The position numbers and the translations under genes were made by a program. DNA of 63,894 nucleotides, the filler included, from Acidimicrobiia bacterium (GTDB lineage Bacteria; Actinomycetota; Acidimicrobiia; Spongiisociales; JAHEDJ01): NCBI GenBank assembly GCA_029210695.1. It is 11 parts of 11 records of this genome, joined end to end, with 100 filler letters (N's around TTAATTAATTAA, not from the genome) between each part and the next. Parts side by side here need not be neighbours in the genome. Positions count along the whole stretch, not along the records: positions 22,950 to 28,323 come from JARGFH010000110.1; 10 more parts are not named here. The stretch is one strand, 5' to 3'. Positions 2,931 to 62,632 of this stretch are shown in pieces. A model generated the notes under the pieces. It ran no database searches. It was not told the DNA's origin and was given only the letters and a program-made list of their open reading frames with translations. Every line of letters begins with the position of its first letter. Positions within the stretch are counted from its first letter, which is position 1.

Positions 2931-3647
2931 TCAAACCTCACCAAACCGGGCGTCATACGCCACGGCAATGCTCTCAATGAACTCCTCCCAACGGAGGCCG
3001 CTCGCCACCGGTGGCAGGTCCGGCTCGATGGCGCCAGTCTCGCGGTCGAAGGCAACGACTGCGATCCCCTCGAGGAGGTGCGGCGCATCTCCCTCGGTCT
3101 CCCGACCGCCGGCTCTCATGAAGCGGGCAACCGCGCGGGAAACAAGGTGGCTCGTTGACTTCCAATCGGTGTCTGAACCCGATTTCACGCGCTCGGTCGT
3201 GGGAAGAGTCAGGATTCCACCGACCACTGCGAACGGGAACTTCAGGTGGATGTTGACGGCGAACGTCCTGACGTCGCCGAATCGATTCCATATCGCACGG
3301 CCGACCGCCAGGTGAACCGGCTTGATCTCGACAGCAAGCGTCAATCCGTGGATCTCGGAGATCTCGGACACATCGGCCTTAACGCTCCGCAAGCCACCGC
3401 CAACCTCCCTCTCGCCTGCTACTGCTCGGTCGAGGCCCAAGCCGTGATCTCGGAGATCACCAAGAGTGACCTCAGCCAGGGCGTTTGACAGCCTGATTTG
3501 CGCGGCCTTCCCCTTGTCTCCGCCGAGCTCGGTCGCGTTGCGGATGTATTCGGCGGATGCCCTGCAGTAGTCCTCGATAGTGGGGCGCTCTCGCCCGACT
3601 AGACCATCCACGAGATCGAGGCCTGTCGGTTCGGGCGCTCTAGTCAT
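2931..3647 (-). CDS. Putative type II restriction endonuclease, PD-(D/E)xK fold
   Basis: KADV...AVEIK...NRFGD motif; starts 4 nt after the methyltransferase stop. Confidence 0.7.
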   Translation of the reverse strand: MTRAPEPTGLDLVDGLVGRERPTIEDYCRASAEYIRNATELGGDKGKAAQIRLSNALAEVTLGDLRDHGLGLDRAVAGEREVGGGLRSVKADVSEISEIHGLTLAVEIKPVHLAVGRAIWNRFGDVRTFAVNIHLKFPFAVVGGILTLPTTERVKSGSDTDWKSTSHLVSRAVARFMRAGGRETEGDAPHLLEGIAVVAFDRETGAIEPDLPPVASGLRWEEFIESIAVAYDARFGEV

Positions 3648-25945: not shown

Positions 25946-26001
25946 ACAACAGAACTAACCCAATATGGTCTGGCCGACCAGAGCCCAACTCCCGATCTCC
26001 G
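25946..26001. repeat. Direct repeat copy 1, downstream of the cassette ORF
   Basis: ACAACAGAACTAACCCAA...GCCGACCAGAG..CCCAACTCCCGATCTCCG. Confidence 0.85.
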
Positions 26002-26003
26002 GC

Positions 26004-27296
26004 TCACGGCAGGATGGCGTCGAGGAGGCGTTCGGCCGACACTTCGCCGAACACGGTGACGACGAAGGCGATGGTGGGGATGAGCAATCCCGCCGCGGTT
26101 CGGAGGAGGTTGTTGGTGGTGGTGACGGTCGCGGGGGCGTCGCGGATCCTGTCGTGGAGGAAGAGCAGATCCCGGAGTTCCTCCGACTCCTGTGTTGACA
26201 GGTTGGTGTAGCGCGGTCCGAACGCGTCGATACGCCGTTGCAGTCCCTGCAGTCGCTGGTTTCGGCTCCGCTCGACGATCTTGCGAACGCTCGCCGCGTA
26301 TCTGAAGGCCAGGGCGAAGGTAGAAACGTAGCCGATCGCCACGAACCCGACCGCCATCGGTAGCACCAGCGCCGAGTCCCATCCCACCAGCACCACCGTC
26401 AGCACCAGAAAGAGAGTGGTCCACATCCCGGCCGTGAACGCTTGCCAAATTGTCCTTCGCATCGCCTTGCGGATCTCGGGCGAGTCGGCCGGACTCGGCC
26501 AGAAGAGCTGGTGGTCGTACCTGGCCTGGCGAGACATCGTGACCCAGTTGAGGAGGGTGTTGCTCCAGATGGGTAGTGTCCCGAAATCGTAGAGCAGCAG
26601 AGCCAGCAGAACGATGCTCCCGGCGGGAAGGTCGCCCAGGGCGGTTGGGGCAAACAGCCAGGAGGCCAGCAGCATGACGGCCGCCACCGCCACCCCGGCA
26701 GTCGCCACCACCGGCAGCCGGTACAGACGCCGGGTGAGGCCGGCCAGGTCACGCAGGTCGGACTCCCGGGCGATTGTTGGGATCAGCGCCGTCCAGTCCT
26801 CCAGCAACGGCTTCAACCGTGGCGGCACAGGGTCGTCAAAAACCGGCCAGAGGAGCGCCAAGATGACGTCGATCAGACCGTAGAGCACAAGGATCGCCGC
26901 CCACCGTCCCCAGGGGATCCCGGTCCACTGTCCGGCTAGGGCGGTAGCGAGAACCACGACGGCCAGCCTGATACCAAACCCCGTCAGCCCGTACAGCGCC
27001 GCGGCTCCTGTAGTCCGCGGTGCCAGCCCGAGGCGCCGCCGAATACGATCGCTCAGGCTGCGCAAGACCAACTCAGGGCCAACGATCCAGAGCTTGCGGA
27101 GGTTCTCCACCAGGGTGTCGAACGCCTCGGTACGTTCGGGCCGAAACTCGCGTTGAATCCCGGACGGGGTTTGCGGTAGCACAGGCTCGGTGCCCGCCTC
27201 CGCAGCGGCATTCCCCACCATCTCCGACATGGAATCGGTCGGCTGTGTCCCTCCCGGGGCTTGTGGCGTCGTTGCCACGAACCACCTCCGCGCCAC
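26004..27296 (-). CDS. Hypothetical multi-pass membrane protein (start uncertain)
   Basis: 430-aa ORF with about 7 TM helices filling the space between the repeats. Confidence 0.75.
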
Positions 27297-27327: not shown

Positions 27328-27391
27328 ACAACAGAACTAACCCAAGCGGTGCAAGCCGACCAGAGGAAAAGGACCCAACTTCCGATCTCCG
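27328..27391. repeat. Direct repeat copy 2, upstream of the cassette ORF
   Basis: ACAACAGAACTAACCCAA...GCCGACCAGAG...CCCAACTTCCGATCTCCG. Confidence 0.85.
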
Positions 27392-27415
27392 ACAGTCGGG
27401 TTTCGCCGCCGCAAT

Positions 27416-28247
27416 GAGGCTCTTATGGTGTCAAGTGGTGGTTTTCGCGATCTTGGTTTGGTTGTCAAGGTGCGGTGCGGGGTGGGCGGACACGACAGGG
27501 TTGGGCCACTGGCGTTGAGGGCATGCTCTTATTAGGTCACGCTGTCCCGCTGCTGGTGGTGAGAGCGGGGTGGGGCGGGCAGTTCATTGGTTGGACAGCC
27601 CGGTTGGGGCGTCGGCCGGTTCGGGGGCCACGCCCCTCCCTGCAGGTTTTTGGGTGTTAGGCGACGGGGAGGTGTTTGAACACTTCCCGAGCCACGTAGC
27701 GTTTCAACATCCGGACGGTCTCGCCGATCGATTTGCCTTCCTTGCTGCGTCGTTCCACATACCGTTTGGTGTCGGGGTCGGATGCGAGGCGGCTAAGGAC
27801 CACCTGATAGAGGGCATGGTTGGCTTGCCGGTTGCCGCCTCGGTTGAGTCGATGCCGGATCACCTTGCCCGACGAGGCCGGCAGTGGCGCTACCCCGCAG
27901 AGGTGAGCGAACGCGGCTTCGCTTTTCAGCCGTTCCGGGTTGTCCCCGGCAGCGACGAGGAGGATGGCGGCGTTGTCGACCCCGACCCCGTAGACGTTGA
28001 GCAGGTTGGGGGCGGCGGCGTTGATCAGGGGAGGCAGCATGTGGCGGATCTGGCTGATCTGGGCATCGAGTAGTTGCACCCGCTGCGCCAACGTCTTGAG
28101 CGCCACCTTGGTGGCGTAGGTGACCACGTCACCGTTGTCTCGAGGACGCAAGGCGGCGGTCTGGTTCACCAGTTGGGTTTTGGAGAGCCCGAAGAACCGT
28201 TCCCGCAGCGGCTGGGGGGCGGTGAATACCAGATGCCGCATCTGCAC
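27416..28247 (-). mobile_element. IS110-family element, 3' part (recombinase C-terminus 27657-28247 plus noncoding end)
   Basis: SEAAFAHLCGVAPLPASSG, RLNRGGNRQAN, LKRYVARE; end reads CTTGACACCATAAGAGCCTC. Confidence 0.9.
27484..27636 (+). ncRNA. Putative IS110 bridge RNA, antisense to the recombinase
   Basis: Two stem/internal-loop modules: GCGGACACGACAG...GCTCTTATTAGGTCACGC and GGGGCGGGCAGTTCATTG...GGCCACGCCCC. Confidence 0.65.
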
Positions 28248-33623: not shown

Positions 33624-33700
33624 CTCCAGTGTGACCGAAAACGACCCCGAACGCGAGCACCCCCGACCCACAACCACCAACTTTTTCGGCAGCCACCTAG
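33624..33700 (+). mobile_element. IS1182-like right end (second copy 38666-38741), CTAG target
   Basis: Near-identical 76-nt ends finishing CAGCCACCTAG; inverted match to the left end at 52654. Confidence 0.75.
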
Positions 33701-38565: not shown

Positions 38566-38760
38566 NNNNNNNNNNNNNNNNNNNNNNNNNNNNNNNNNNN
38601 NNNNNNNNNTTAATTAATTAANNNNNNNNNNNNNNNNNNNNNNNNNNNNNNNNNNNNNNNNNNNNTCCAGTGTGACCGAAAACGACCTCGAACGCGAGCA
38701 CCCCCGACCCACAACCACCAACTTTTTCGGCAGCCACCTAGCTGTGCGAGAGGAGGTGAC

Positions 38761-43270: not shown

Positions 43271-43654
43271 CGACCTCCGTTTTAGGTTTTGAGTTATGGG
43301 TTGTACTTGGCGGCCCGCTGTAAATCACAACCCAAAACCTAGAGGCAGTCCGCCAGGACATCGTGCCTGTTGTGTAGCGCGTCTATGTCCGCCAGGAGAT
43401 TGTTCCTATGCGTGGTGGTANNNNNNNNNNNNNNNNNNNNNNNNNNNNNNNNNNNNNNNNNNNNTTAATTAATTAANNNNNNNNNNNNNNNNNNNNNNNN
43501 NNNNNNNNNNNNNNNNNNNNCAGGACCTGATGGCACACTTGATACGCGACCGCGCTAGGTGGCGTCGGTAGATCGAGCACCGCTCGCGGAAGTGCCGGTC
43601 TGCTCGGTTCCGAGAGGTGGGCGTTTCTGCTCGGGATCTGTTGTTCGGCGCTGG

Positions 43655-47689: not shown

Positions 47690-48056
47690 TCGAGGACCAG
47701 GGGCCGATCGGGGTTGCGTTCCTCGTCGGCTACTCAGGAGACATCACCCGATTCGAGAGCGCCGGCCACTACGCCTCATACAACGGGACAGCACCCATCG
47801 AAATGTCATCAGCGGGCAGCAAGAAACATCGGCTCAGCCTCCGCGGTAACCGGAAACTGAACCACGCCATCCACATGGCCGCCGTCTCCCAGATCCGAAA
47901 CGACACTCCCGGTCGGATCTACTACGACAAGAAACGAGGTGAAGGCAAAACCAAGAAAGAAGCACTCCGAGCGTTGAAACGGCGAGTCTCCGACGCCGTC
48001 TACAAACAGCTGGCCGCCGACCAGATTTAGGGCCCGGGGACACCCAGGAACGTCTC
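47690..48056 (+). mobile_element. IS110 recombinase C-terminal fragment
   Basis: YASYNGTAPIEMSSAG, RLSLRGNRKLNHAIH, ALKRRVSDAVY. Confidence 0.85.
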
Positions 48057-53137: not shown

Positions 53138-53211
53138 AGCCCTCCTCTACGCCGGAAAACCCAACTGGAATCTACTCGCCACCATCACACCCCGCTGAAA
53201 TCCGATGAGCC
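53138..53211 (+). mobile_element. ISL3-family right end (inverted copy at 62459-62532)
   Basis: Encodes [23 protein letters not shown]; ends GATGAGCC. Confidence 0.8.
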
Positions 53212-62395: not shown

Positions 62396-62632
62396 AAGGC
62401 TGACCGAACTCGAGAGCCGATGTCGTGATGAGCGAACCGTTCAGAGGTCTCTATTCGTGGCTCATCGGATTTCAGCGGGGTGTGATGGTGGCGAGTAGAT
62501 TCCAGTTGGGTTTTCCGGCGTAGAGGAGGGCTNNNNNNNNNNNNNNNNNNNNNNNNNNNNNNNNNNNNNNNNNNNNTTAATTAATTAANNNNNNNNNNNN
62601 NNNNNNNNNNNNNNNNNNNNNNNNNNNNNNNN

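Follow-up and report, generated by a model that had tools for sequence, protein, structure and literature searches.

Is the non-coding DNA that follows a broken IS110-family recombinase gene itself the gene of a bridge RNA, and if so, from which strand is that RNA read? The locus lies in a window of 63,894 nt (the whole stretch of DNA analysed, from the Acidimicrobiia bacterium assembly GCA_029210695.1), which consists of 11 short contigs joined by N spacers. A first-pass annotation, made from the sequence alone, had noticed a two-loop structure on the plus strand, 3' of a minus-strand recombinase, with short loop sequences matching the end of the element and its flank, and had proposed a bridge RNA antisense to the recombinase in an inverted, right-end architecture. 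The analysis described below leads us to conclude, with a probability of roughly 0.8, that positions 27485-27643 encode an IS110-family bridge RNA that lies in the right non-coding end of the element and is read in the sense direction.

A truncated IS110-family element at a contig end

The contig at 22950-28323 ends within a minus-strand gene, the 3' part of which (27657-28246, minus strand; stop codon at 27657-27659) encodes the last ~195, C-terminal residues of an IS110-family recombinase, on the strand originally assigned to it. PF02371 was the only Pfam domain matched by this remnant (E 1.2e-16), the NCBIfam model NF033542 was matched at profile positions 173-336 of 343 (72.5 bits), and the N-terminal DEDD/RuvC-like domain was absent. 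Of 6542 candidate proteins (388-2000 residues) searched with the remnant, 1714 matched at E<=0.001, and identity to the best 120 of these 1714 was at most 64%. In BLASTP alignments to two relatives of 402 and 405 residues, homology begins at fragment residue 13-27, equivalent to residues 140-208 of the relatives, and the upstream part of the recombinase was not restored in any reading frame before the contig end. Full-length relatives carry PF01548 together with PF02371; one of them passes NF033542 ('IS110 family RNA-guided transposase') with 173 bits at a cut-off of 140, and matches the solved recombinases of ISCro4 (E 1e-7) and IS621 (E 1e-6).

The last 77 nt of the contig (28247-28323), to which an N spacer is joined, are unrelated to the recombinase and showed no homology in any frame. 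Exact overlaps of 74-77 nt are shared by other contig ends of the window, and the 77 nt therefore probably represent the initial k-mer of a different repeat, by which the recombinase gene is interrupted or truncated. The overlaps between contig ends (33447-33523 with 43521-43597, 53138-53211 with 62459-62532 and 33625-33700 with 38666-38741) are exact or near-exact over 74-77 nt and resemble the output of a de Bruijn-graph assembler, so that neighbouring contigs of the window are graph neighbours, which does not imply adjacency in the genome. The last contig (62702-63894) is filled by diverged tandem repeats with a period of ~240-480 nt (69-76% identity over 220-940 nt).

Because the catalytic N-terminal half of the recombinase and the left end of the element are both missing in the contig, the window copy is a broken remnant that is unable to move by itself. 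When the whole window was searched for the predicted start of the left end and for an empty target site, nothing above chance was found, and the window contains no second copy of the element or of the RNA. It does contain an unrelated second recombinase remnant of the IS110 family (47719-48030, plus strand; ~100 C-terminal residues, PF02371 E 3.3e-14), which lies close to the contig end at 48252, shares 35% identity with the first remnant and gives no match to the RNA model R1 described below.

The right ends of relatives are conserved as TTGACA, a few bases and then ATAGGAGC (motif TTGACA-N-ATA[G/A]GAGC), and the corresponding string of the window is TTGACACCATAAGAGC (27419-27434 read in reverse complement). 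The GC at 27419-27420 forms the end of the element or adjoins it; CAATGA at 27412-27417, which had been described as spanning the junction, is wholly within the flank. The right end is accordingly 238 nt long (27419-27656), compared with 204-219 nt where two copies of a relative are found in the same genome (219 nt for L005/L006, with an element of 1552 bp, and 204 nt for L036/L039). A TTGACA box is positioned 10 nt from the right end (27429-27434, minus strand), with a second copy at 27463-27468. In 30 rows TTGAC[A/G/T] was found 10-14 nt from the end, in 28 of them as exact TTGACA. The two boxes of the window are separated by an extra ~34 nt that are absent in most relatives, a similar insertion being present in L068.

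By analogy with the accounts given in PMC11187229 and PMC12288879, TTGACA might supply the -35 half of a promoter that arises when the element ends are joined. A GA-N3-T hexamer was considered as its partner, occurring 15-17 nt from TTGACA across the joined ends in 15 of the 21 rows with a located left end, and was treated as weak because it departs from the consensus. A scan of both strands between 27250 and 28323 detected no sigma-70-like promoter, and a terminator scan of the same interval gave a single terminator-like site, inside the gene, against 1.3 expected from shuffles. Inspection by eye revealed a short G+C-rich hairpin (CCCC-N4-GGGG) between the RNA and TTGACA, in L002, L003, L005, L011, L012, L019, L021, L033, L038 and L048. 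On the sense strand it has a run of A before it, so that the antisense reading resembles an intrinsic terminator, and it could block outside transcription from entering the element.

The flank of the element is intergenic, upstream of a 430-aa ORF (26004-27296, minus strand) for which there was no Pfam match. A repeat of ~60 nt, with the core ACAACAGAACTAACCCAA ... GCCGACCAGAG ... CCGATCTCCG, has copies at 25946-26001 and 27328-27391, upstream of two minus-strand genes: a Fur-family gene, followed by a catalase-peroxidase gene, and the 430-aa ORF. The insertion sequence lies 20 nt from the second copy.

The RNA module and its guide segments

An alignment-based scan, limited to one genome per species, yielded 79 related loci with 47-66% protein identity, mostly from Acidimicrobiia genomes assembled from metagenomes. 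Despite this level of protein identity, conservation of the DNA 3' of the stop codon reached E<=0.01 in 34 of 77 loci. A covariance model (R1) was built from 32 sequences of relatives, and its sole match in the window was at 27485-27643 on the minus strand (119.5 bits, E 7.8e-26), beginning 14 nt 3' of the recombinase stop codon and so, as the first-pass annotation had it, in the right non-coding end. The match covers positions 1-155 of 155 with two non-standard pairs, and the RNA module of the window is in this sense intact. Rfam gave no match at gathering score over the whole window and two chance-level matches (E 5-9) in 27350-27720.

The predicted RNA is made up of a target-binding stem-loop, a linker and a donor-binding stem-loop, with a large internal loop in each of the two stem-loops. 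The target-binding stem-loop (27565-27643, minus strand) has an outer stem of 16 pairs, the internal loop and an inner hairpin; its helices 1 and 2 were paired in 89.8% and 95.1% of cells, with compensatory change in 13 of 16 and 6 of 7 pairs, respectively. Helices 3 and 4 form the donor-binding stem-loop (27486-27542, minus strand), with 91.1% and 98.1% of cells paired. Taken together, the curated structure (32 sequences, 4 helices, 34 pairs) had changes on both sides in 28 of its pairs and 92.4% of cells paired, a value that none of 500 shuffles reached (74.3% in shuffles); when the structure was slid along the alignment, 29-47% of cells were paired. RNAalifold, run on 33 sequences, returned 29 pairs with compensatory change in 23. 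These covariation statistics bear out the two-loop structure that had been noticed on the plus strand. They do not bear out the strand, as the stems look alike on both strands and a structure seen on the plus strand is uninformative about which one is transcribed.

All four guides lie on the minus strand. In loop 1 they are the left target guide (LTG; 5' side, 27615-27623) and the right target guide (RTG; 3' side, 27583-27589), and in loop 2 the left donor guide (LDG; 5' side, 27525-27533) and the right donor guide (RDG; 3' side, 27494-27504). The strings on which the original proposal was based were all read directly where they had been placed, with GCTCTTAT at 27419-27426 and 27525-27532, CAATGA at 27412-27417 and TCATTG at 27584-27589. 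What had been called the loop 1 string is contained in the LDG, and the loop 2 string, TCATTG, in the RTG. These are the two of the four guides that the window allows to be checked, the left flank and left end being absent. The LDG matched the right element end, which is the left donor half (27419-27427, minus strand), at 8 of 9 positions, and the reverse complement of the RTG matched the right target half in the host flank (27412-27418, minus strand) at 6 of 7. The LTG predicts the missing left flank and the RDG the start of the missing left end, so that the target predicted from loop 1 has CGAACCGGC as its left half and approximately TCATTG as its right half. The RDG had its own coding DNA as its only exact match in the window, and five others with one mismatch.

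Matches of this length carry different weight in the window. The 8-mer GCTCTTAT occurs three times against 0.39 expected, a number reached in 1 of 100 shuffles, with two of the three copies 106 nt apart. TCATTG is present 23 times against 24.3 expected and is thus meaningful only through the relatives, in which this loop position and the flank covary. It is on these comparative data, and not on match length, that both short matches are judged to be real, the one as an LDG that reads the right end and the other as an RTG that reads the right flank.

The covariation of loops with donor and target sites, which the first-pass annotation had suggested as a check, was tested separately in relatives with the RNA downstream and upstream of the gene. 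In the downstream type, the LTG matched its own left flank at a mean of 7.94 of 9 positions and the flanks of others at 3.43 (18 unique pairs), and the RTG its own right flank at 5.57 of 7 against 3.89 (28 unique pairs); each of these own values was reached by 0 of 10000 permutations. For the RDG, it was the reverse complement that matched the start of the left end, at 8.41 of 11 positions against 6.61, in a test that is partly circular as the best match served as anchor. Covariation of the LDG was not significant in the downstream-type set (6.94 versus 6.77, reached by 1795 of 10000 permutations) because the guide is nearly invariant; the exceptions in L016, L033/L038, L029 and L068 covary. 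The upstream-type relatives, an independent set, gave 6.37 of 9 against 3.50 for the LTG, 5.67 of 7 against 3.75 for the RTG, 8.14 of 9 against 7.37 for the LDG and 8.50 of 11 against 6.04 for the RDG (again partly circular), with 0 of 10000 permutations for each of the four; it was in this set only that LDG covariation was significant. The loop sequences therefore covary with the flanks and ends of the elements, which is the logic of IS110-family bridge RNAs, and the donor- and target-binding loops first proposed for this DNA are upheld. An attempt to fix the two-base core failed: in many relatives the left and right junctions share the last C only, and without an empty site the crossover could not be placed.

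The transcribed strand and competing explanations

The position of the RNA relative to the gene argues strongly for the sense strand. R1 had 97 matches in the 79 loci. Four of them have no recombinase nearby; the other 93, each no more than 700 nt from a recombinase segment, are all on the strand of the recombinase, 50 of them upstream and 43 downstream of it. The upstream bridge RNAs of the IS110 group are sense transcripts (PMC11208160, PMC12288879). In addition, when the RNA is read in the sense direction its loop order and guide geometry are those of IS621. The pairs themselves carry a strand signal, as G-U outnumbered A-C in the sense reading of 78 distinct full-length matches, both in the model alignment (137 versus 65) and in a structure-blind MAFFT alignment of the same sequences (146 versus 94); the 32 closest sequences taken alone gave no such signal (24 versus 29). 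Shuffle-controlled z-scores were lower in sense for 23 of 32 sequences, and for the window were -2.70 in sense and -0.88 in antisense. From these comparisons the bridge RNA is very probably read from the recombinase strand.

Transcription from the plus strand, antisense to the recombinase in an inverted architecture, as first proposed, is by the same comparisons very improbable. Raw folding energy does favour it, the summed MFE being -2175 kcal/mol on the plus strand against -1946 kcal/mol, and the alifold energy -48.1 against -37.5 with a C-rich sense strand, whereas the shuffle-controlled z-scores, like the excess of G-U over A-C in the 78 sequences, favour sense. It might also draw on the absence of a sense promoter beside the RNA, and on a recurrent difference between the donor guide (ATAAGAGC) and the right end (ATAGGAGC), seen in 25 of 30 downstream-type rows, in which the guide has A and the end G: in antisense this would be a tolerated rU.dG wobble, in sense an rA.dC mismatch. 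An opposite case, GAC versus GGC in the RDG, is a wobble that fits sense alone, and the types of mismatch in guide-DNA pairs, being mixed, were not used to decide the strand. An antisense RNA would, moreover, have every guide running away from the crossover and the donor loop first, unlike IS621, and it would have to be reconciled with 93 of 93 gene-adjacent homologues on the strand of the gene, 50 of them in the canonical upstream position, where IS110-group bridge RNAs are known to be sense transcripts (PMC12288879).

Still less probable is that the right-end structure acts as DNA, forming a hairpin at which recombination takes place, or within the 3' UTR, as a stabiliser or a terminator, with the loop matches as by-products. 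Compensatory changes do not separate RNA from single-stranded DNA, and to that extent the structure by itself fits such a role. A terminator or hairpin would, however, have no need of four loop segments that covary with four DNA sites more than 1 kb apart, 35 relatives have the same module at the other end of their element, and there is no terminator-like site at the right-end structure. A different matter, compatible with the identity of the RNA as a bridge RNA, is whether the window copy is a dead relic whose RNA is now idle in the genome. This we consider rather probable, given a recombinase that lacks the DEDD domain, a left end that is not in the window and the lack of a second RNA copy there; the intact module with its full-length model match speaks against it, and an intact copy elsewhere in the genome could use the RNA or supply one in trans.

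For a sense-strand bridge RNA of this kind, transcription, protein binding and recombination are inferred by homology with IS621. The RNA would be made within the recombinase transcript or processed from it, would bind the recombinase and would hold two DNAs through base pairing, loop 2 being expected to pair with the joined ends of the circularised element, the LDG with the right end and the RDG with the left end (for background on excision, see PMC13626964).

Position of the RNA among relatives and known systems

Among the 79 loci, the full RNA was found only upstream of the gene in 32, with three more in which the downstream side is missing, and only downstream in 27, with four more in which the upstream side is missing. 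Nine further loci have a downstream RNA (six full-length, three partial) together with a match in the left end; in L032 this match is weak and full-length, and in the other eight it covers the target-loop half only. Among the 30 upstream-type rows considered to have a located right end, 25 have it 4-14 nt past the stop codon, and in the other five it is 49-81 nt past the stop or not found within reach; this is the canonical layout of the IS110 group. In L013 (3601-3725 and 4176-4335) and L017 (3608-3705 and 4154-4309) a partial RNA after the gene is followed ~450-550 nt further on by a full one, an arrangement that points to nesting or tandem rearrangement within the right end.

A tree of the C-terminal domains of 80 relatives, rooted at the midpoint, placed 30 downstream-type rows, the nine mixed ones, the window and a single upstream-type element (L030) in one clade of 41 rows (support 98/97), which with this root is nested among, and sister to, upstream-type elements. 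The RNA has likely moved from the 5' to the 3' side among the related loci. Within the clade the window groups (90/95) with L068, L015 and L016, all three of which carry the target-loop hairpin in the left end.

This hairpin stands alone, without a donor loop, in the left end of L010, L015, L016, L018, L068, L013, L017 and L041, with L032 and its weak full-length match counted as the ninth relative, and lies at ~2340-2510 in loci whose match starts at 3001. Its stems differ in sequence from those of the 3' RNA yet stay fully paired. Its RTG and that of the 3' RNA agree fully in L010, L018 and L068, are one base apart in L016 and differ at 4 of 7 positions in L015, and its LTG differs at 1-2 of 9 positions in all five loci compared. 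Counted over all nine relatives, four combine an unchanged RTG with an LTG that departs from that of the 3' RNA at 1-2 of 9 positions. RNAs consisting of the target loop alone (short seekRNA, 'truncated TBL RNA') are described in 10.1101/2025.10.25.684509 as processing products of the full RNA. The left-end hairpin of the relatives is like them in comprising the target loop alone, and unlike them in that the relatives would encode it separately, as a second copy. The window, in which the left end is missing, lacks it. In the titles and abstract openings surveyed, no description was found of a right-end bridge RNA with a target-binding loop in the arrangement reported here.

A location of the bridge RNA 3' of the gene is already known: elements of the IS1111 group have it as a rule, and it is noted for some IS110-type elements (PMC11208160, PMC11187229). 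PMC11187229 describes for ISEc11, ISPa11 and ISKpn4 a long non-coding region with a guide RNA downstream of the transposase gene, and seekRNA that is thought to be cut from a long transcript. The preprint 10.1101/2024.06.21.599552 had no passage on RNA location. The window family is like the IS1111 group, on the description in PMC11187229, in this downstream position, in the proposed processing from a long transcript and in the TTGACA-like -35 box in the right end. It differs in several respects. The IS1111 criterion is subterminal inverted repeats of 7-17 bp, and no consistent repeat of this kind was found: comparing the first with the last 45 nt, an exact repeat of at least 7 nt was present in 4 of 21 relatives, and 18 of the 21 were matched or beaten by at least 10% of shuffles (less than 10% in L008, L031 and L005). 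The order of the guides is also that of the IS110 type, with the 5' guide pairing to the bottom strand and the 3' guide to the top strand, whereas in IS1111 elements the top-strand-complementary segment is 5' of the bottom-strand-complementary one (PMC11187229). Further, the RNA has two simple internal loops in place of the multi-loop donor site that is described for many IS1111 members, and the nearest protein relatives of the window clade carry their RNA upstream.

Compared with IS621, as described in PMC11208160 and PMC11208158, the window-type RNA has the same two stem-loops with internal loops, target first and donor second, the same 3' loop side (7-11 nt in the window family) that is the reverse complement of the right half, and, very probably, the same location on the strand of the recombinase gene; the recombinases share their two Pfam domains, and the IS621 structure is the one matched by sequence at E 1e-6. 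Unlike IS621, by those same accounts, the window-type RNA comes after the gene, in the right end, and not before it, has no separate 5' stem-loop and has a right target guide that does not reach the terminal GC, and the junction bases expected to form a shared core are identical at the last C only in many relatives. With the IS110 group sensu ISfinder it shares two simple internal loops, target then donor, when set against PMC11208160, and differs from it in lying downstream and not in the left end. IS110-type elements with a 3' non-coding region, which PMC11187229 mentions briefly, have in common with it the IS110-type transposase and the downstream location of the long non-coding region.

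A joint reading of these observations is possible but tentative, and in our estimate doubtful. The RNA module would have moved from the 5' to the 3' side in one mostly-Acidimicrobiia clade, later than the old split between IS110 and IS1111 and independently of it. The window, L068, L015 and L016 would represent a state with two RNAs, the right end encoding a full bridge RNA and the left end a structurally intact target-loop hairpin with the same or almost the same target guides, both of which would be used; an abundant target-loop RNA might, for example, serve one strand-transfer step and the full RNA the other. The single base at which donor guide and right end constantly disagree in the 3' type may be part of such a changed mode; in upstream-type relatives the two are identical.

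For the annotation of this genome, a contig break is accounted for, as are 240 nt of 'non-coding' DNA, and the copy can be marked as the remnant of an RNA-guided insertion sequence whose target is predicted from sequence alone. No new antisense architecture is shown by these data. What they add is a high-G+C actinobacterial family of natural bridge RNAs in which the target and donor guides can be read, together with a covariance model able to detect the RNA whether it lies 5' or 3' of the recombinase gene. Close relatives exist in three states, with the RNA upstream, downstream, or downstream with a target loop in the left end, and such a set of elements makes it directly testable how a bridge RNA passes from one end of an element to the other.
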